DNA from: Actinomycetes bacterium
GTDB lineage: Bacteria; Actinomycetota; Acidimicrobiia; Acidimicrobiales; Aldehydirespiratoraceae
Reading direction: 5' to 3'
DNA length: 64,000 nucleotides
Assembly: GCA_024276495.1 (NCBI GenBank)
Contig: JAJRXC010000107.1
Location: 29,025-93,024, forward strand
Shown here: piece by piece, positions 29,399 through 52,386 of the stretch
How the letters are laid out: each line of letters opens with the position of its first letter
How positions within the stretch are numbered: position 1 is the first letter of the stretch
Made by a program: the position numbers and the translations under genes
The notes under the pieces: model-generated
What the model was told of the DNA's origin: nothing
Seen by the model: the letters and a program-made list of their open reading frames with translations, nothing else
Databases searched by the model: none

Positions 29399-32817
<3,419 letters not shown>

Positions 32818-45294: not shown

Positions 45295-45843
45295 TCAACG
45301 ATACCGGTGGGGTTCGGTCCAGGCCCCGGTTGCCGCGTCGAAGGCGCGAGCGGCGTCGGTCATCCACTCGATCCGGCCGTCGCGCGCCGCGGTCGACGAC
45401 ACCTCCAGGAGGTTGTCGGCGACCGGGAGACGGTACCGGTCCGGGACGGGATGGGGCGGCCGGGGGGCGATGGCCAGGCCGGGCAGACGGGCGACGGCCG
45501 CGTCGCGAGCGGCAACGTCGCCTCCGTACCAGGACGGGTCGTTGACCTGGGCCCACTTGTCGGCTCCCATCACCACGATGTCGTAGCCCTCGGCGATGTC
45601 GATGACGAGCTGGGCGTCGGTCACGACGAAGCCGAGTCCGTCGAAGTGCTCGATCGATTCGCGGATCACGGCGATGCGTTCCTCGAAGCGGGGACCAGGA
45701 GCCGAGTCCTTGCCGAGGGCCATGACCGACACGGCCAGGTCGATCCGTGTCAACCCGTGGGTGTCGCGAGCCGCGAGGGCGATCTCCAAGTGGGCCCGGG
45801 TCGGCGGGTTGAACGAGCCCGGATAGACGCCGATGCGAGTCAT
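45295..45843 (-). CDS. Cytidylyltransferase-fold nucleotidyltransferase (NadD/NMNAT-like)
   Basis: GVYPGSFNPPTRAHLEI ((T/H)xxH motif) and EVSSTAARDG (ISSTxxR-like). Start taken at ATG 45843, because ATG 45876 would overlap the ilv promoter. Confidence 0.7.
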   Translation of the reverse strand: MTRIGVYPGSFNPPTRAHLEIALAARDTHGLTRIDLAVSVMALGKDSAPGPRFEERIAVIRESIEHFDGLGFVVTDAQLVIDIAEGYDIVVMGADKWAQVNDPSWYGGDVAARDAAVARLPGLAIAPRPPHPVPDRYRLPVADNLLEVSSTAARDGRIEWMTDAARAFDAATGAWTEPHRYR

Positions 45844-45869
45844 GTCGAGGAGCCAATCACGAATCCACG

Positions 45870-45898
45870 TTGTCATGGCGCCCGACAGTGGTCATACT
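45870..45898 (+). promoter_or_regulatory. Candidate sigma70-type promoter of the ilvBNC leader
   Basis: TTGTCA (45870-45875), a 17-nt spacer, then CATACT (45893-45898). The leader ORF start GTG 45906 lies 8 nt after the -10. Confidence 0.4.
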
Positions 45899-45905
45899 CG
45901 TGCCC

Positions 45906-45950
45906 GTGAACGCGCGTCTCGTCTCCGCCCTCGTAGTAGGCCTCCGCTAG
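45906..45950 (+). promoter_or_regulatory. ilvB leader peptide ORF (Leu/Val-rich, 14 codons)
   Basis: gtg aac gcg cgt ctc gtc tcc gcc ctc gta gta ggc ctc cgc tag = M-N-A-R-L-V-S-A-L-V-V-G-L-R-stop. It uses the rare codons GTA GTA and is followed directly by two stem-loops. Confidence 0.55.
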
Positions 45951-45989
45951 CGCACGTTCGCGACCAGTTTTCCTCCGGAACGTGCGCCA

Positions 45990-46022
45990 CGACCTCCCCA
46001 AGGGAGGTCGTTTCGTGTTTTC
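45990..46022 (+). terminator. Intrinsic terminator (attenuator) upstream of ilvB
   Basis: CGACCTCCC (45990-45998), loop caa, GGGAGGTCG (46002-46010), followed by TTTCGTGTTTTC. It lies about 50 nt before the ilvB ATG. Confidence 0.6.
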
Positions 46023-46075
46023 GGCCCATACTTCCCTGTCCGTTTCGGACACCGACCCATGCACTGCGAGTACCC

Positions 46076-47830
46076 ATGAGCGACAACCAGCAGATGTCCG
46101 GCGGCGAGGCGCTCGTCAAGAGCCTCGAGCACGAGGGCGTCGACGTGATGTTCGGCCTTCCCGGCGGGGCGATTCTTCCCGTGTACGACCCGATCATCGA
46201 CAGCTCGATCCGCCACATCCTCGTGCGTCACGAACAGGGCGCCGGACACATGGCCGAAGGATACGCCCACGCGACGGGCCGGCCCGGCGTCTGCATGGTC
46301 ACCTCGGGTCCGGCCGCCGCCAATGTGGTCACTCCGCTGCCCGACGCGTTCCTCGAATCGGTGCCGATGGTGTGCATCACGGGCCAGGTCCCGTACGCGG
46401 CGATCGGGACCGACGCCTTCCAGGAGTGCGACACGACCGGCATCACGATGGCGGTGACGAAACACAACTTCCTCGTCAGCGACGCGCAGGACATTCCCCG
46501 GATCATCCACGAGGCGTTCCACATCGCGACGACCGGCCGCCCCGGCCCGGTGCTCGTCGACATCCCCAAGGACATCGTCGATCCGGTCAATCCCCGCTCC
46601 GCGATGAGCTGGTACGAGGCGACCGACGCCGACATGGAGCTCCCCGGCTACCGGCCGGTGATGGAAGGCGATCGCGAGCTGATCCGCCGAGCCGCCGAGC
46701 TCATCCGGGATGCGGAACGTCCCGTTCTGTACGTCGGCGGTGGGGTGCTCAAGGCCCGGGCCGCTGATGCGCTCCGGGAGCTGGCGGAGATGGTGCAGAT
46801 TCCCGTCGTCACCACCCTGATGGCCCGGGGCGCGTTCCCCGACAGTCACGAGCTCTGTCTCGGCATGCCGGGCATGCACGGCAACTACACCGCCGTCACC
46901 GCGATGCAGCAGTCCGATCTGTTGATCTCCCTCGGCGCCCGATTCGACGACCGGGTCACCGGCAAGCTCGACGGGTTCGCTCCCGACGCGAAGATCATCC
47001 ATGTCGACATCGATCCGGCCGAGCTGGGCAAGGTGCGCCAGACACTCGTCGGCATCCAGGGTGATTGCCGCGTCGTGATCGAGGGCATCATCGCGGCGAT
47101 GCGGGAGCTCGGCGGAGCCGACGCCCAGGTCGACCGCACCGCGTGGCGCTCGACGGTGTCGGGTTGGCAGGAGAGGTTCCCGCTCGTCTACGAGCAGTCG
47201 GCGCCCGGCGAGAAGCTGAAGCCGCAGTACGTGATCGAGGAGCTGCGGGACCACAATCCGAGCGACACGATCGTCGCGTCCGGCGTCGGCCAGCACCAGA
47301 TGTACACGAGCCAGTGGTGGCGCTTCGATCACCCCTACACGTTCGTCAACTCCGGGGGGCTGGGGACGATGGGGTTCTCGATCCCCGCGGCGATCGGCGC
47401 CAAGGTCGGCATGCCCGACCGTCGGGTCTGGGCGGTCGACGGCGACGGCTGCTTCCAGATGACGGCCCAGGAGCTGGTCACCGCGTCGGTCGAGAACATC
47501 CCGATCAAGGTCGCGCTGCTCAACAACTCGTATCTCGGCATGGTGCGACAGTGGCAGGAGATGTTCTACGACGAGCGCTACAGCGAGGTTTATCTCCAGG
47601 ACCGCATCCCCGACTATGTGAAGTGGGCCGAGGCGATGGGCTGTGAGGCGATCCGGGTCGAGTCACCCGAGGAGGTCGCCCCGGCGATCGACAAGGCGAA
47701 CGAGATCAACGACCGTCCGGTCGTCGTGGAGTTCCGCACCGACGCCCGCGAGAACGTGTTCCCGATGGTGCCGTCGGGGAAGACGAACTCCGAACTGGTC
47801 GTCGACCCGAGTCAACAGGATCGTCTCTGA
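46076..47830 (+). CDS. ilvB: Acetolactate synthase large subunit
   Basis: MSDNQQMSGGEALVKSLEHEGVDVMFGLPGG, TPP motif GGLGTMGFSIPAAIGAK...DGDGCFQM...NN. The ORF's upstream extension from 45833 is non-coding leader. Confidence 0.95.
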   Translation: MSDNQQMSGGEALVKSLEHEGVDVMFGLPGGAILPVYDPIIDSSIRHILVRHEQGAGHMAEGYAHATGRPGVCMVTSGPAAANVVTPLPDAFLESVPMVCITGQVPYAAIGTDAFQECDTTGITMAVTKHNFLVSDAQDIPRIIHEAFHIATTGRPGPVLVDIPKDIVDPVNPRSAMSWYEATDADMELPGYRPVMEGDRELIRRAAELIRDAERPVLYVGGGVLKARAADALRELAEMVQIPVVTTLMARGAFPDSHELCLGMPGMHGNYTAVTAMQQSDLLISLGARFDDRVTGKLDGFAPDAKIIHVDIDPAELGKVRQTLVGIQGDCRVVIEGIIAAMRELGGADAQVDRTAWRSTVSGWQERFPLVYEQSAPGEKLKPQYVIEELRDHNPSDTIVASGVGQHQMYTSQWWRFDHPYTFVNSGGLGTMGFSIPAAIGAKVGMPDRRVWAVDGDGCFQMTAQELVTASVENIPIKVALLNNSYLGMVRQWQEMFYDERYSEVYLQDRIPDYVKWAEAMGCEAIRVESPEEVAPAIDKANEINDRPVVVEFRTDARENVFPMVPSGKTNSELVVDPSQQDRL

Positions 47831-48321
47831 TGAGCGCCGAACGGTTCCACACCATCGTCACCACGGTCGAGAACAAGCCGGGTGTGCTGGCCCGGGTGGC
47901 CGGCCTCTTCTCCCGTCGAGGATTCAACATCGAGTCGCTCGCAGTCGCACCGACCGATGACGAGCGGTTCAGCCGCATCACGTTCACCGTCGATGTCGAG
48001 TCGGCCCCCCTCGAACAGGTCGTTAATCAGCTCAACAAGCTGATCAATGTCGTCGACATCAAGGAGCTCGACCCGGCCGATTCGGTGTCCCGGGAGCTCA
48101 TGCTCGTCACCGTCTCGGCTGATTCGTCGCGTCGTGGTGCGCTCATGGACCTGATCGACGACTGGCGGGCGTACGTCCTCAACGAGAACGACGAGCAGAT
48201 CATGTTGTCCTTCTCGGCTCGACCCGCCCGACTCCTCGAGTTCGAAGAACAGCTGCGCCCGTTCGGGATCACCGAGCTGCAGCGCACCGGCCGCGTGGCG
48301 CTTCCGTCGCTCGGTCGCTAG
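47830..48321 (+). CDS. ilvN: Acetolactate synthase small (regulatory) subunit
   Basis: TGATG overlap with ilvB. ACT domain HTIVTTVENKPGVLARVAGLFSRRGFNIESL. Confidence 0.93.
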   Translation: MSAERFHTIVTTVENKPGVLARVAGLFSRRGFNIESLAVAPTDDERFSRITFTVDVESAPLEQVVNQLNKLINVVDIKELDPADSVSRELMLVTVSADSSRRGALMDLIDDWRAYVLNENDEQIMLSFSARPARLLEFEEQLRPFGITELQRTGRVALPSLGR

Positions 48322-48378
48322 TCCCCGACCGTCCAAGTTCAACATCCACCAACCAGACAGAGAAGAGAAGGTTCCGCC

Positions 48379-49413
48379 GTGGCGAACATCTACTACGAAA
48401 AAGACGTCGACCGTTCGGCGCTTGCCGATCGCCGGGTCGCCGTCCTCGGGTACGGATCCCAGGGTCATGCCCACGCCCTCAACATGAAGGAATCGGGCAT
48501 CGATGTCCGGGTCGGGTTGCGGGAGGGCTCGTCGTCGGTGGCCAAGGCCCAAGCCGCGGGTCTGGCCGTGCGTTCGATCGCCGACGCGACCGCCGAAGCC
48601 GATGTCGTAATGATGCTCATGCCCGACACGGAGATGGCCGCCATCTACGAATCCGACGTGGCCCCGAACCTGTTCGAGGGCGACGCGCTGTTCTTCGCCC
48701 ACGGGTTCAACATCCGTTTCGATCTGATCACGCCGGCGCCCGAGCTCGACGTCTGCATGGTCGCGCCGAAGGGGCCCGGCCATCTCGTTCGCCGTACCTA
48801 CACCGAAGGTGGTGGGGTGCCGTGTCTCGTCGCGGTCGAACAGGACGCCACGGGTGGCGCGAAGGCGTTGGCGCTCGCCTACGCCGACGCCATCGGCGGG
48901 GCCCGGGCGGGAGTGATCGAGACGACCTTCACCGAGGAGACCGAGACGGATCTGTTCGGCGAGCAGGCGGTGCTGTGCGGAGGTACGACCCGCCTCGTCC
49001 AGGCCGGATTCGAGACGCTCATCGAGGCCGGCTATCAGCCGGAGGTCGCCTACTTCGAGTGTCTCCACGAGCTGAAGCTGATCGTCGACCTCATGTACGA
49101 AGAGGGAATCGCCGGCATGCGCTACTCGGTGTCCGACACCGCCGAGTGGGGCGACCTCACCTCTGGTCCGCGGGTGATCGACGACCGGGTGAAGGCCACC
49201 ATGAAGACGCTCCTCACCGAGATCCAGGACGGCACCTTCGCCGCGAACTGGGTCGAGGAGAGTCGTTCGGGGCGCGAACGTTTCCACGCGCTCGAGAAGG
49301 CCGGACACGACCACCCCATCGAAACCGTCGGCAAGGAGCTCCGTTCGATGATGCCGTGGATCTCCGCCGGCAAGCAGTCCGTCGCCGAGACCTCCGGCGG
49401 CCAAGGCATGTAG
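48379..49413 (+). CDS. ilvC: Ketol-acid reductoisomerase
   Basis: [25 protein letters not shown], and full-length class I KARI similarity. Confidence 0.95.
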
Positions 49414-49430
49414 CCACCCGCCTCCTCCCC

Positions 49431-49460
49431 GCCTCCGCCCCGCCCGCCTCCGCCCCGCCC
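49431..49460. repeat. Perfect tandem duplication of a 15-bp C-rich unit (GCCTCCGCCCCGCCC x2) inside a 47-nt C-rich tract
   Basis: 49431-49445 and 49446-49460 are identical. The tract 49414-49460 is almost G-free on the + strand. Confidence 0.9.
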
Positions 49461-49511
49461 GCTTTTCTGACGCGTTGATCGCGTAGAGCGCGACCAACGC
49501 GTCAGAAAAGC
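49461..49511. terminator. Perfect 17-bp palindromic hairpin between convergent ilvC and a minus-strand gene (probable bidirectional terminator)
   Basis: GCTTTTCTGACGCGTTG (49461-49477) pairs with CAACGCGTCAGAAAAGC (49495-49511). The loop contains an additional 5-bp stem, TCGCG-tagag-CGCGA. There is no U-tract on either side. Confidence 0.55.
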
Positions 49512-49549
49512 AGGGCTCCGGTGGGGGCCCGAGGTCGGCGGGAGAGGAG

Positions 49550-49942
49550 TCAGGGGAAGAGGTTGCGGGCGAGCCAGGAGAGCTGCATGAGCGCGGCGAT
49601 CGAGACGGGGCCCACGAACGCGATCATCACCGCCCAGGTCATCCAGCGGATCCAGGGGGGACGATCGGCGAAACGACGTTGGTGGAACGCCGCGTCGAGG
49701 GCATCTCCTTCGGTGTCGGGCGGAAGGTCGTCGGTCAGCACACTGCGGGCGTGGTCGGCGATCTCGTCGCGCACGACGAGCTGGAAGACCCGCTCGGTGA
49801 CGAGATGGGGGGCGATCGAGTGGGCGGGATCGCCGAGCACCGCCGATTCGAGCCCGGCCTCACCCAGACGGGCCTTGGCGAGGTCCGCGTCGAATCGGGT
49901 GCCGAACTCGGCGACGATCGATCTCCCGGGAAGCGGACGCAT
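49550..49942 (-). CDS. Hypothetical protein, DUF2007-like N-terminal domain plus a C-terminal TM helix
   Basis: 130 aa from ATG 49942. IVAEFGTRFDADLAKARLGEAGLESAVLGD...QLVVRDEIADHARSVL, then WMTWAVMIAFVGPVSIAALM. Confidence 0.5.
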   Translation of the reverse strand: MRPLPGRSIVAEFGTRFDADLAKARLGEAGLESAVLGDPAHSIAPHLVTERVFQLVVRDEIADHARSVLTDDLPPDTEGDALDAAFHQRRFADRPPWIRWMTWAVMIAFVGPVSIAALMQLSWLARNLFP

Positions 49943-50031
49943 GTCACAGAGTCTTCCACTCCCCGCCACCGAAGCGCGCCGCGGTCCTTGGATAGGGTGC
50001 GACCACGGTGAAATCGGTCGAGGAGGGAACC

Positions 50032-50643
50032 ATGGAGCTCACCATTGACGGGATCGACAACGGACAACCGGTGCCGGCACGCCACGCGTTCTGTGTGGGC
50101 GATGGAATGGGCGACAACATCAGTCCGGCGCTGCGATGGCGCGACATCCCCGACGGCACCCGATCGATCGCGGTCACCTGCACCGACCCGGACGTCCCCA
50201 GCGACCCCACCGACGTGAACCAACAGGGGCGCACGGTTCCCGACGATCTCCCCCGCATCACCTTCGCCCACTGGCTGCTCGTCGACCTGCCGGCCGAGAC
50301 GACCGGCATCGACGAGGGCGCCGAGGGCTCGGGCATCGTGGCCAGAGGGAAGCCGGTCGAGGATGCGCCGGTCGGCGGCGTCCGCGGCGCCAACGACTTC
50401 ACGTCGTGGTTCGCGGGCGACGAGGACATGGACGGAACCTACGGAGGTTACGACGGTCCCTGCCCCCCGTGGAACGACTCGATCATGCATCACTACACGT
50501 GGACGGTCCATGCCCTCGACGTGGCGACACTGGGGCTGGCTCCCGGCTTTCGGCTGGCCGACTTCGAGGCGGCCGCCGACGGTCACGTGTTGGCCACCGC
50601 GAGCGTGACCGCGCGCTACAGCCTCAACCCCGAGGTCGGCTGA
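50032..50643 (+). CDS. YbhB/YbcL-family PEBP (Raf-kinase-inhibitor-like) protein
   Basis: AGGAGGG lies upstream of ATG 50032. SPALRWRDIPDGTRSIAVTCTDPDVP...FAHWLLVDLP...YDGPCPP...HHYTWTVHALD. Confidence 0.85.
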   Translation: MELTIDGIDNGQPVPARHAFCVGDGMGDNISPALRWRDIPDGTRSIAVTCTDPDVPSDPTDVNQQGRTVPDDLPRITFAHWLLVDLPAETTGIDEGAEGSGIVARGKPVEDAPVGGVRGANDFTSWFAGDEDMDGTYGGYDGPCPPWNDSIMHHYTWTVHALDVATLGLAPGFRLADFEAAADGHVLATASVTARYSLNPEVG

Positions 50644-50647
50644 CCCG

Positions 50648-51559
50648 GTGGCCACGGCGATCGAGGTGCGCGGCCTCGTCAAGACCTACGGCGAATCCCG
50701 AGCGGTCGACGGCATCAGCTTCTCGGTCGAGGAGGGCGAGGTCTTCGCGATCCTCGGCCCCAACGGTGCCGGCAAATCGACGACGGTCGAGATCCTCGAG
50801 GGGCATCGCGACCCGACCGACGGCGAGGTCTCCGTGCTCGGCATCGACCCATCGCGCGGCGGCCGCTCCTTTCGCGACCGGATCGGGATCGTGTTGCAAT
50901 CGGCCGGGATCGATCGTGAGCTGAGCGTGCGTGAGGTGCTCGACTTCTACGGGGCGGCCTATTCCTCTCGGCGACCGACCGACGAACTGATCGAGCTCGT
51001 CGAGCTCGGTGAGAAGGCCGACGACCGAGTGGGCACGTTGTCCGGTGGTCAACAACGGCGAGTCGACCTGGCGCTCGGGCTGGTCGGAGACCCGGAGTTG
51101 ATCTTCCTCGACGAGCCGACGACCGGCTTCGATCCGGGTGCCCGTCGCCGCAGCTGGGATCTGATCACCAACCTCCGTTCGTTGGGTCGAACCATCGTCT
51201 TGACGACCCACTATCTCGACGAGGCCGAGCATCTCGCCGACCGTGTCGCGGTGCTCTCCGAAGGAAGAATCGTGGCCGAGGGATCGCCGGCCTCGCTCCG
51301 TTCGTCGTTCGGGAGCGGCACGACGATCAGCTTCGATCTCCCGGCGGTCGACGGCTCACTCTCCGATCTCCTCGATCCGTTGACCGGGGAGGTTCGGGGC
51401 CGGGATCGGCGAATCGAGATCCTGACCTCTTCGCCCACGAGCGATCTCGCCCACATCACGACGTGGGCCGTCGCCCACGATCTCGAGCTCGGATCGCTAC
51501 AGGTCGCGTCGACCGACCTGGAAGACGTCTACCTCCAGCTCGTCGGCGGGGACACATGA
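50648..51559 (+). CDS. ABC transporter ATP-binding protein (ABC-2/DrrA-type exporter)
   Basis: Walker A GPNGAGKST, signature LSGGQQRR, Walker B LIFLDEPTTGFD. Confidence 0.9.
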   Translation: MATAIEVRGLVKTYGESRAVDGISFSVEEGEVFAILGPNGAGKSTTVEILEGHRDPTDGEVSVLGIDPSRGGRSFRDRIGIVLQSAGIDRELSVREVLDFYGAAYSSRRPTDELIELVELGEKADDRVGTLSGGQQRRVDLALGLVGDPELIFLDEPTTGFDPGARRRSWDLITNLRSLGRTIVLTTHYLDEAEHLADRVAVLSEGRIVAEGSPASLRSSFGSGTTISFDLPAVDGSLSDLLDPLTGEVRGRDRRIEILTSSPTSDLAHITTWAVAHDLELGSLQVASTDLEDVYLQLVGGDT

Positions 51560-52386
51560 CCCGACGGTCCACCCCCGCCCTCGTGCTGCTCCACATCCGG
51601 GCCCAGAACCGTCTGTTCTGGCGGGTCCCGATCGGTGCGTTCTTCACCCTCGCGTTGCCCGTGATCATGTTGGTGCTGTTCGTCGCCCTGTTCGGCAACG
51701 AGCCCGAGGGCAGCGTCGTGGGCACCATCACCCCGGCCCAGTTCTACACGCCGGCCCTCGCCGTGTTCTCCGTCGGTTCCGCCACCTACACCAACATCGC
51801 GATCAACTTGTCCACCCGGCGAGAGGAGGGCATCCTCCGCCGGGTGAGGGGCACACCGCTTCCTCCCTGGGTCTACATGGCCGGCGCGGTCGGCTCGGCC
51901 GTCTGGATCGGCGTCATCGCCCTCGTCGTGATGGTGGGGCTCGGCGTGATCGCCTACGACGTGAACCTCGAGGTGGCCAAGCTCCCGGCGATGGCCCTCA
52001 CGTTCGTGGTCGGCTCGATGTGTTTCGCGATGCTGGGCATCGCGTTGGCGGGAGTGGCCAAGTCGGCCTCGTCCGCCTCGGCGCTGGCCAACGCGACGAT
52101 CCTCCCGATGGCGTTCATCTCGAACATCTTCATCAACCTCGGCACCAATCCCCCCGAGTGGCTCCAGGTGCTCGGTGACCTGCTGCCCCTGCGCCACTTC
52201 GGGCTCGCGTTCGCGGAGGCCATGAGCCCGTTCAGCGAGACGCCGGCGATCCTGTGGGATCGACTCGGCGTGCTCCTCTTGTGGACCGCGGTCGGTGCGC
52301 TGCTCGCCCGTTGGCGGTTCCGATGGGATCCCGTTCCCGGGGCGAACGGCCGGACGACTCGTCGCGGGCGGAGGACGACCGCCTGA
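51556..52386 (+). CDS. ABC-2-type transporter permease
   Basis: ATGA overlap with the ATPase gene. 6 TM segments, typical ABC-2 length (276 aa). Confidence 0.85.
   Translation: MTRRSTPALVLLHIRAQNRLFWRVPIGAFFTLALPVIMLVLFVALFGNEPEGSVVGTITPAQFYTPALAVFSVGSATYTNIAINLSTRREEGILRRVRGTPLPPWVYMAGAVGSAVWIGVIALVVMVGLGVIAYDVNLEVAKLPAMALTFVVGSMCFAMLGIALAGVAKSASSASALANATILPMAFISNIFINLGTNPPEWLQVLGDLLPLRHFGLAFAEAMSPFSETPAILWDRLGVLLLWTAVGALLARWRFRWDPVPGANGRTTRRGRRTTA

Follow-up and report, generated by a model that had tools for sequence, protein, structure and literature searches.

The DNA studied here is a 64-kb stretch (the window; all coordinates are positions in it) of an Acidimicrobiia (Actinomycetota) genome, in which an element at 45870–46022 lies directly upstream of the ilvB ATG at 46076 and on the same strand. 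Very likely, this element is an actinobacterial attenuator of the ilvL type, which regulates transcription of the ilvBNC operon by a ribosome-mediated mechanism. An initial annotation of the window had proposed a leader-peptide attenuator in front of ilvBNC, and the proposal is supported by the present analysis, as ilvBNC lies downstream and the leader open reading frame (ORF), a first hairpin (H1) and the terminator are all conserved in relatives. All the features named in that annotation are found at the coordinates it gave. Established by the evidence below are the anatomy of the element and its recurrence in relatives, the covarying stem of H1, the sensor of rare codons, the geometry relative to a ribosome footprint and the near-identity with the M. 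tuberculosis design. The features of the element and the operon, with lengths in nucleotides (nt) and base pairs (bp), are as follows.

45870–45875, + strand: −35 hexamer TTGTCA, from a consensus scan
45893–45898, + strand: −10 hexamer CATACT, from a consensus scan, at a 17-nt spacer from the −35 hexamer
45906–45950, + strand: leader ORF (ilvL-like), GTG start, 14 codons plus TAG, peptide MNARLVSALVVGLR
45930–45938, + strand: sensor codons CTC GTA GTA (Leu-Val-Val), GTA being a rare codon
45948–45950, + strand: stop codon TAG, its last base being the first paired base of H1
45950–45987, + strand: hairpin H1, 10-bp stem GCGCACGUUC/GAACGUGCGC with an 18-nt loop, ribosome-sensitive, presumed antiterminator
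45989–46011, + strand: terminator hairpin ACGACCUCCC-CAA-GGGAGGUCGU, 1 nt 3′ of H1
46011–46022, + strand: U-rich tract with interruptions, TTTCGTGTTTTC, where an attenuated transcript of about 115 nt is predicted to end
46076–49413, + strand: regulated operon ilvBNC, with ilvB at 46076–47830, ilvN at 47830–48321 and ilvC at 48379–49413

The leader module recurs upstream of ilvB in related genomes

The comparison set was drawn from the GTDB species genomes and comprised the 80 loci with the best-matching IlvB (67–90% identity, all from Acidimicrobiales/Acidimicrobiia metagenome-assembled genomes; loci L001–L080). The leader module was found upstream of ilvB in 75 of these 80 loci, to which all counts out of 75 given below refer, and this recurrence puts the observation of an attenuator far beyond chance. 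Aligning the ilvB upstream regions of relatives had been suggested in the initial annotation as a check, and in the aligned regions the Leu/Val codons are conserved and the stems show compensatory changes.

Two relatives, L003 and L045, are without the module. In L003 (approximately 1170–1500; IlvB 85% identical), the upstream region is visibly more A+T-rich, coding sequence continues to about 45 nt before ilvB, and neither a leader ORF nor hairpins are present. Some lineages have lost or replaced the attenuator.

The leader ORF carries a conserved rare-codon sensor

The leader ORF that had been read from GTG 45906 to TAG 45948–45950, with six of the 13 residues after the start of MNARLVSALVVGLR being Leu or Val, is present in the window and has equivalents in 75 of the 80 loci. 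The length of these ORFs is 10–20 codons in 73/75, and their start codon is ATG in 51, GTG in 21 and TTG in three of the 75 cases. Statistically, Leu, Val or Ile (L/V/I) accounts for 74% of the last six leader residues versus 14% of the remaining residues, and the interchange of L/V/I codons among the leaders resembles the evolution of coding sequence.

Across the family the leader core is written CTC GTA (GTA/ATC/CTC), and many Acidimicrobiia leaders end in LVVVT. GTA makes up 63% of the Val codons in the leaders, while the ilvB genes from these genomes use it for 1.4% of theirs; at least one GTA is found in every leader (75/75), and the first GTA stands 3–5 codons before the stop in 70/75. 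In the window, where the rarity of GTA had initially been judged by eye, counting bore the impression out, with GTA being one of the 101 Val codons in ilvBNC versus two of the three in the leader. The rare GTA codons thus appear to constitute the conserved sensor. The only other exact match of CTCGTAGTA in the window, at 30432–30440, is on the minus strand, as are 11 of the 12 one-mismatch matches; the plus strand reads TAC TAC GAG at such sites, which may simply belong to the coding sequence of genes on that strand.

TAG is the leader stop codon in 63/75 loci, and its AG usually lies inside the H1 stem. In the G+C-rich Actinobacteria TAG is expected to be an uncommon stop; its preference here could be structural, or could reflect a slow RF1-dependent release that holds the ribosome on the left arm of H1.

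The leader ORF is predicted to be leaderless

The promoter initially proposed, TTGTCA (45870–45875) and CATACT (45893–45898) separated by 17 nt, was found exactly so, and is the sole promoter-like match that the consensus scan returned in 45500–46400 (one found versus 0.2 expected). CATACT is identical in the closest relatives (L001, L002 and L004–L007), and a TTG-type −35 hexamer located 16–19 nt before a −10-like (NANNNT) hexamer occurs in about 65/75 related loci. Seven nucleotides separate the −10 box from GTG 45906, and the start codon follows the −10 hexamer by 6–9 nt in 69/75 loci. The full signature of promoter and spacing was observed at 65/75 leader starts, whereas of the remaining 11,021 ATG/GTG triplets of these loci 0.4% showed it. 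Although the leader start was picked among in-frame candidates by the promoter criterion, there are only three or four candidates per ORF, so that at a background of 0.4% the choice of start cannot account for 65/75. A Shine-Dalgarno (SD)-like 4-mer upstream of the leader start was found in only 4/75 loci, and the window itself carries the sequence signature of a leaderless leader ORF, with the promoter right before the start and no SD. Taken together, and in line with the initial suspicion, the mini-ORF is very probably leaderless, with a predicted transcription start site (TSS) at or next to GTG 45906; from this layout we infer both the position of the leader TSS and the translation of the ORF.

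Two details of the initial annotation did not hold. GTG 45900, offered as an in-frame alternative start, lies 1 nt past the −10 hexamer and hence upstream of any transcript from the TTGTCA/CATACT promoter, and an in-frame start at the equivalent position was not seen in L002, L005 and L006. The suggestion that a leaderless leader peptide would be a notable variant was also mistaken, since the leaders of S. lividans, C. glutamicum and M. tuberculosis start at or near the TSS. In S. lividans, all eight leader peptides, IlvL included, are transcribed leaderless (PMC8079986), and the C. glutamicum ilvBNC leader ORF begins one nucleotide from the TSS (PMC11857589). Leaderless leader peptides are therefore the norm in Actinobacteria.

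H1 and the terminator are conserved, independent and abutting

Folding of 45900–46030 (131 nt), which had likewise been suggested as a check, gave −53.8 kcal/mol (z = −3.4; 0/200 shuffles as stable), with both H1 and the terminator predicted. H1, described initially as a 10-bp stem abutting the stop codon, is formed by GCGCACGTTC (45950–45959) pairing with GAACGTGCGC (45978–45987) over 10 bp. In 58/75 loci the second or third base of the stop codon is also the first of the hairpin, and a hairpin search blind to ORFs put its left arm right after TA, completing TAG.

Alignment with MAFFT and RNAalifold recovered the terminator alone, the variable H1 loop having misaligned the right arm, and a segmentation based on the minimum free energy (MFE) structure mis-parsed a few loci. 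Instead of these, a register-fixed pairing test was used, which took 7 nt from the third stop-codon base and sought their antiparallel partner before the terminator. All seven pairs were obtained in 55/75 loci, compared with 1.5% of shuffles. A total of 42 distinct arm pairs was found, and every position showed three or more kinds of Watson-Crick pair (e.g. GCGCACG/CGTGCGC, GCACACG/CGTGTGC, GGCGAGC/GCTCGCC and GACGTAC/GTACGTC), which demonstrated the covariation of H1. We also ran duplex tests over the 75 loci on all pairs of ten segments, namely the 5′ and 3′ parts of the ORF, the H1 left arm, loop and right arm, the spacer, the terminator left arm, loop and right arm, and the tail; the complementarity of the two H1 arms reached t = −26, and that of the two terminator arms t = −46.

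The terminator stem with its T-rich tail is present where the initial annotation had placed it, and is the sole terminator-like match of the consensus scan in 45500–46400 (45989–46011; one found versus 0.2 expected). Its arms ACGACCTCCC/GGGAGGTCGT form 10 bp with −17.7 kcal/mol and are followed by TTCGTGTTTT. The hairpin is conserved in about 75 loci with a stem of 9–10 bp, of which three basal pairs covary, as judged by the compensatory changes in RNAalifold. H1 and the terminator are equally stable (means across loci of −18.0 and −17.7 kcal/mol, respectively) and are separated by 1 nt in the window and by 0–3 nt in 64/75 loci. The conserved design is thus one of two independent, abutting hairpins.

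The terminator core CCUCC(C):(G)GGAGG (45993–46007 in the window) is anti-SD/SD-like and near-invariant in more than 70 genomes, while the loop, the basal pairs, H1 and the ORF all vary around it; the core U:A pair is changed to U:G in 15 loci, and one clade (L043, L060, L069 and L079) has the core CCCCUCGC/GCGAGGGG, which retains GAGG. Within the 64-kb window, the CCTCC...GGAGG hairpin is unique. GGGAGG was also considered as the SD of ilvB or of a downstream ORF, and was rejected, given that no conserved start codon follows it and that it lies anywhere from 41 to about 200 nt away from ilvB. The relatives have interrupted T-runs like that of the window, often ...GTTTTC, with the conserved form (C/G)GTTTTC(G/C) (alignment columns 111–123).

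The 5′ end of the leader, GUGAACG (45906–45912, including the GTG start), can pair with CGUUCGC in the left arm of H1 (45955–45961), and the equivalent pairing is weakly enriched across the family (t about −2).

H1 formation would report ribosome stalling

Ribosome positions were represented by masks with the 26-nt occlusion taken from the M. tuberculosis study (PMC13236596), the footprint reaching about 13 nt downstream of the A site. The sensor GTA codons lie 14–17 nt upstream of H1, so that a ribosome with either GUA in the A site ends 1–4 nt short of H1, while a ribosome at TAG covers the full left arm of H1. This is the geometry of an upstream hairpin that is free at a sensor stall and covered at the end of the ORF, and the formation of H1 would therefore report stalling.

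On this basis the following course of events is proposed. Transcription would start at or beside GTG 45906, and the leader ORF would be translated without a 5′ untranslated region (UTR) or SD. When charged Leu and Val tRNAs are plentiful, the ribosome would proceed to TAG 45948 and place its footprint over the left arm of H1 (45950–45959), and with H1 blocked the terminator (45989–46011) and the U-tract would act and release a transcript of about 115 nt. A ribosome stalled at the sensor codons, 14–17 nt before H1, would instead leave H1 just outside the ribosome and free to fold; the folded H1, which abuts the terminator at a distance of 1 nt, would hinder productive formation of the terminator, and RNA polymerase would proceed into ilvBNC. 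Most likely, then, the operon would be switched on when Leu, Val or Ile is short.

We infer the responsiveness to branched-chain amino acids (BCAA), as well as the manner in which H1 blocks the terminator, from this arrangement. Because the two hairpins share no nucleotides, H1 would have to act sterically or kinetically, through contiguity or by making RNA polymerase pause, and not through the classical competition for bases; a steric or kinetic contiguity effect is what we favour. H1 might sterically exclude the basal pairs of the terminator within the RNA exit channel or, as a hairpin, stabilise a pause, and the near-invariant, anti-SD/SD-like CCUCCC/GGGAGG core could contribute a ribosome-dependent component. 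The family may even represent a non-overlapping form of antitermination, in which H1 located 0–3 nt upstream suppresses the terminator without shared nucleotides, perhaps as a general mode for actinobacterial ilvB; we put this forward tentatively, as an extension that is more doubtful than probable. Masked folds of the validated M. tuberculosis element likewise retain both hairpins, and non-overlap, in place of the textbook competition for shared bases, could therefore be general for actinobacterial ilvB attenuators.

Observations against attenuation by H1 and alternative explanations

Several observations weigh against attenuation through H1. Masked folding gave the terminator a mean probability (P) of approximately 0.97 in all 75 loci whether the ribosome was absent, stalled or at the stop codon. 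Beyond the stems of H1 and the terminator, no segment pair in the ten-segment duplex tests over the 75 loci was complementary above shuffles, and the arms of H1 were even depleted for pairing with those of the terminator (t = +6 to +8); with only two independent stems, the switching step has no support at the sequence level. The U-tract is interrupted, and the first TTT run lies 4–7 nt from the stem in 35/75 loci, which renders the strength of the terminator uncertain; this tract is atypical of a canonical intrinsic terminator, and termination may be factor-assisted (NusA/NusG). Moreover, mutating the candidate regulatory codons in the S. coelicolor ilvB leader was reported to leave regulation unaffected, so that the mechanism there is disputed (PMC1262725).

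One alternative is a classical multi-segment attenuator, in which the H1 loop would act as a decoy for the terminator right arm, or some other helix would sequester a terminator arm, to give mutually exclusive states. The initial annotation had leaned towards such an alternative pairing. The motifs that it named, CGACC (45961–45965) and CCTCC (45972–45976), are present in the loop, the H1 loops of the window and L001 contain CGACC and CCUCC/UCUCC, and CCUCC-like or GACCUC-like stretches are found in the loops of L017, L019, L022, L032, L035 and L037; the pairing, by contrast, is not conserved, since the duplex energy of the H1 loop with the terminator right arm over the 75 loci equals that of shuffles (−4.95 versus −4.65 kcal/mol in the control, t = −1.3), and many loci, such as L002, L005, L011, L029 and L036, have no such loop motif. 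The mutually exclusive structures whose enumeration had been suggested did not emerge, as the ribosome-masked folds gave no structure that excludes the terminator, and no antiterminator sharing nucleotides with the terminator was found, the two being spaced by 0–3 nt in 64/75 loci. In folds of truncated transcripts that stop short of the right arm of the terminator, the left arm remains essentially unpaired. An enterobacterial-type 2:3 helix using that left arm was not found either, its pairing with the H1 right arm being depleted (t = +8.3), and the duplex tests showed no enrichment for helices joining the 3′ end of the ORF to the spacer or to either arm of the terminator. An extended terminator, in which the freed right arm of H1 would pair with the stretch between the stem and the U-run, was tried as well and discarded, as it scored worse than shuffles (t = +3.7). 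We accordingly consider a classical multi-segment attenuator very improbable.

That the terminator is predicted whatever the ribosome position would also fit a leader terminator that is constitutive or otherwise regulated (by growth rate, (p)ppGpp, NusA/NusG or polymerase speed), with the mini-ORF being no BCAA sensor; the ineffective codon substitutions in S. coelicolor (PMC1262725) and the sensitivity of the M. tuberculosis attenuator to RNA polymerase kinetics (PMC13236596) point the same way. Such a terminator would leave the universal, position-locked GTA, the C-terminal L/V/I run and the fusion of the stop codon with H1 unexplained, however, and in M. tuberculosis the replacement of LVVI by AAAA abolishes induction (PMC13236596), for which reasons this explanation seems unlikely. 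The near-invariance of the CCUCC:GGAGG core amid a variable loop, stem base, H1 and ORF raises the further idea of ribosome capture, in which the free 16S 3′ tail of the stalled ribosome, or a 30S subunit, competes with the terminator left arm for GGGAGG and H1 brings both close. It would accord with the single occurrence of this terminator hairpin type in the 64-kb window, with leader ORFs that have no SD and so leave the 16S tail unoccupied, and with the failure of the masked folds, the duplex tests and the extended-terminator test to reveal an RNA antiterminator. Ribosome capture is nevertheless pure conjecture with no known precedent, and the terminator left arm has the advantage of being in cis and made first. 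The clade with CCCCUCGC/GCGAGGGG, as well as M. tuberculosis with CCCUCG/CGAGGG, retains the GAGG core only, no conserved start codon follows GGGAGG, and the conservation of the core may reflect shared ancestry together with selection for a strong G+C stem; we give ribosome capture very little credence.

Two conserved hairpins in a leader could, finally, belong to an untranslated structured RNA, such as a riboswitch or a protein-binding leader, and a ppGpp riboswitch does occur upstream of ilvB in some bacteria. An Rfam 15 scan of 45700–46300 at E up to 10 yielded noise only (E ≥ 0.3) and nothing related to ilvB, with no covariance-model match to amino-acid leaders, any ilvB motifs in that release, the ppGpp/ykkC riboswitch or the T-box, and no Rfam family reached its gathering threshold anywhere in the 64-kb window. 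In addition, the frame is kept open from a TSS-proximal ATG or GTG to a structurally fixed stop despite the variable length and N-terminus, the L/V/I codon substitutions are coding-like, and the homologous uORFs (upstream ORFs) of M. tuberculosis and Corynebacterium are translated, so that an untranslated RNA is hardly credible at all.

Comparison with known attenuators

To judge from its layout, the window element appears to share the design of ilvB1 in M. tuberculosis and ilvBNC in C. glutamicum, both of them validated attenuators. Leader peptides with terminators upstream of ilvB had been predicted in Corynebacterium, Mycobacterium and Streptomyces by Seliverstov et al. (PMC1262725). For M. 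tuberculosis ilvB1, a terminated leader transcript of about 120 nt, the loss of induction upon the LVVI to AAAA change and a terminator-less control were described (PMC13236596), and ribosome footprints and a lacZ fusion were reported for the uORF (PMC13236596; bioRxiv 10.1101/2022.06.01.494293). We fetched the M. tuberculosis locus (L081) with an IlvB1 bait that was 99% identical to cluster P0001, the neighbours of which are ilvN and ilvC. Its leader reads ATG GAC AAG GCC GGA AAG CCC GGG ATG CTC GTA GTA ATT GGT CGG CGC GTT GGT GCC TGA, and its promoter is TTGACT/TACCGT, whose −10 hexamer is separated from the ATG by 8 nt. Counted back from the start of ilvB1, published as +168, the TSS falls 1 nt before the uORF ATG (L081 834–835), which makes the leader effectively leaderless, although the Term-seq preprint classed this uORF as ‘isolated’, not ‘leaderless’. 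In the same masked fold as used for the window, the first base of the antiterminator CGCGUUGGUGC...GCACCAACGCG is at +14 nt relative to the first GUA; a gap of 1 nt separates this hairpin from the terminator, which consists of CCCUCG...CGAGGG plus a U-run (L081 925–948), and both hairpins coexist in the MFE structure.

M. tuberculosis ilvB1NC therefore resembles the window in having a promoter followed almost at once by the uORF, a CTC GTA GTA sensor (followed by an Ile codon in M. tuberculosis), an antiterminator that begins about +14 nt from the first GUA, a G+C-rich terminator that has a CCUC/GAGG core and follows at a distance of 1 nt, a U-tract, and an attenuated transcript of about 120 nt compared with the approximately 115 nt predicted here. 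The two differ in that the M. tuberculosis uORF runs on for six codons (GRRVGA) into the left arm of the antiterminator, with UGA in the loop, whereas the Acidimicrobiia ORF stops at the 5′ base of the hairpin; an optional GGU:ACC extension overlaps the terminator by 2–3 nt in M. tuberculosis, while no such overlap was found in the window, and the hairpin sequences are unrelated save for the CCUC/GAGG core. Since both hairpins coexist in the MFE structure of the validated M. tuberculosis element, the missing thermodynamic competition is a property of the class and no reason to doubt its member in the window.

In C. glutamicum ilvBNC, the antiterminator and the terminator are adjacent with a single-trinucleotide overlap, and the control codons are CUU and GUA (PMC11857589); the Corynebacterium ilvB-II alignment reads AUG ACC AUU AUU CGA CUU GUA GUA GUA ACC... 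(PMC10272879 supplement). Leaderless leader and adjacent hairpins are shared with the window, and the LVVVT sensor is the very ending of many Acidimicrobiia leaders. Differences are a third, 5′ hairpin in C. glutamicum, an anti-antiterminator that also covers the start codon, the GCC shared by antiterminator and terminator, and the continuation of the ORF (ARRLP) beyond the Val run. The GUGAACG:CGUUCGC pairing of the window, for which t is about −2 in the family, resembles this anti-antiterminator over a leaderless start. IlvL of S. lividans, located upstream of ilvBHC and compared by its published description, is a 13-residue leaderless peptide, MRTRILVLGKRVG; as in the window, its ORF contains L/V/I codons, and hairpins and then a U-rich stretch come after it (PMC8079986).

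Outside the Actinobacteria, the ilvB-OMG and Leptospira ilvB RNA motifs have been reinterpreted as uORF attenuators (PMC10272879); like the window element, they are linked to ilvB and have a uORF rich in BCAA and Thr in a conserved structured leader, but they belong to other lineages with other consensus sequences, and no match to them was obtained from Rfam 15, a release that may omit both motifs. The enterobacterial leaders share the underlying logic, with a peptide rich in the amino acids of the pathway, ribosome stalling and an intrinsic terminator before the first gene. Those of ilvBN, ilvGMEDA and leu possess an SD in a 5′ UTR, encode longer peptides and fold by way of overlapping segments (1:2, 2:3 and 3:4), the antiterminator sharing bases with the terminator; none of these features was found in the window element.

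The kind of element, the leaderless start and the GUA sensor are already published for other Actinobacteria, and our literature search linking Acidimicrobiia with leader-peptide attenuation found no paper. The present analysis adds putative members from the class Acidimicrobiia, which is deep-branching and mostly uncultured, to the leaderless attenuators of the ilvL type in Corynebacterium, Mycobacterium and Streptomyces. The CUC/CUU-GUA-GUA sensor is common to Acidimicrobiia, Mycobacterium and Corynebacterium, the lineages whose leaders were read, which suggests an old, phylum-wide regulatory device. For annotators, the analysis provides a simple signature of an element that matches no Rfam family and is otherwise unannotated. 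The comparison of 75 genomes also isolates a mechanistic gap that is relevant to the medically important M. tuberculosis attenuator: where antiterminator and terminator are neighbours and not competitors, the textbook explanation is incomplete.

Genomic context of the element

The identity of ilvB, ilvN and ilvC is given by the NCBIfam equivalogs TIGR00118 (1.5e-228), NF008864 (1.4e-50) and NF004017 (2.3e-166), respectively. No plus-strand terminator-like site was found in 46400–52000, which covers the operon beyond the first approximately 325 nt of ilvB. ORFs without family assignment and an ABC transporter lie on the 3′ side of ilvC, so that ilvBNC was taken as the regulated unit. No tRNA or tmRNA gene was found across the whole 64-kb window.

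Upstream, a divergent gene (45295–45843, minus strand) encodes a cytidylyltransferase-like protein, and the spacer between its start at 45843 and ilvB measures 232 nt (start supported by the family alignment). The −35 box of the promoter for the ilv leader is just 27 nt away from the start of this gene, a distance that requires the two divergent promoters to overlap within a short part of the 232-nt spacer. Three long ORFs run across ilvB or the leader (45833–47830, plus strand; 45947–47332, minus strand; 45982–46767, plus strand) and are typical spurious frames of G+C-rich DNA. The first of them is an in-frame upstream extension of ilvB that spans the entire attenuator, and a gene caller could mis-start ilvB at ATG 45833 and thereby hide the leader.

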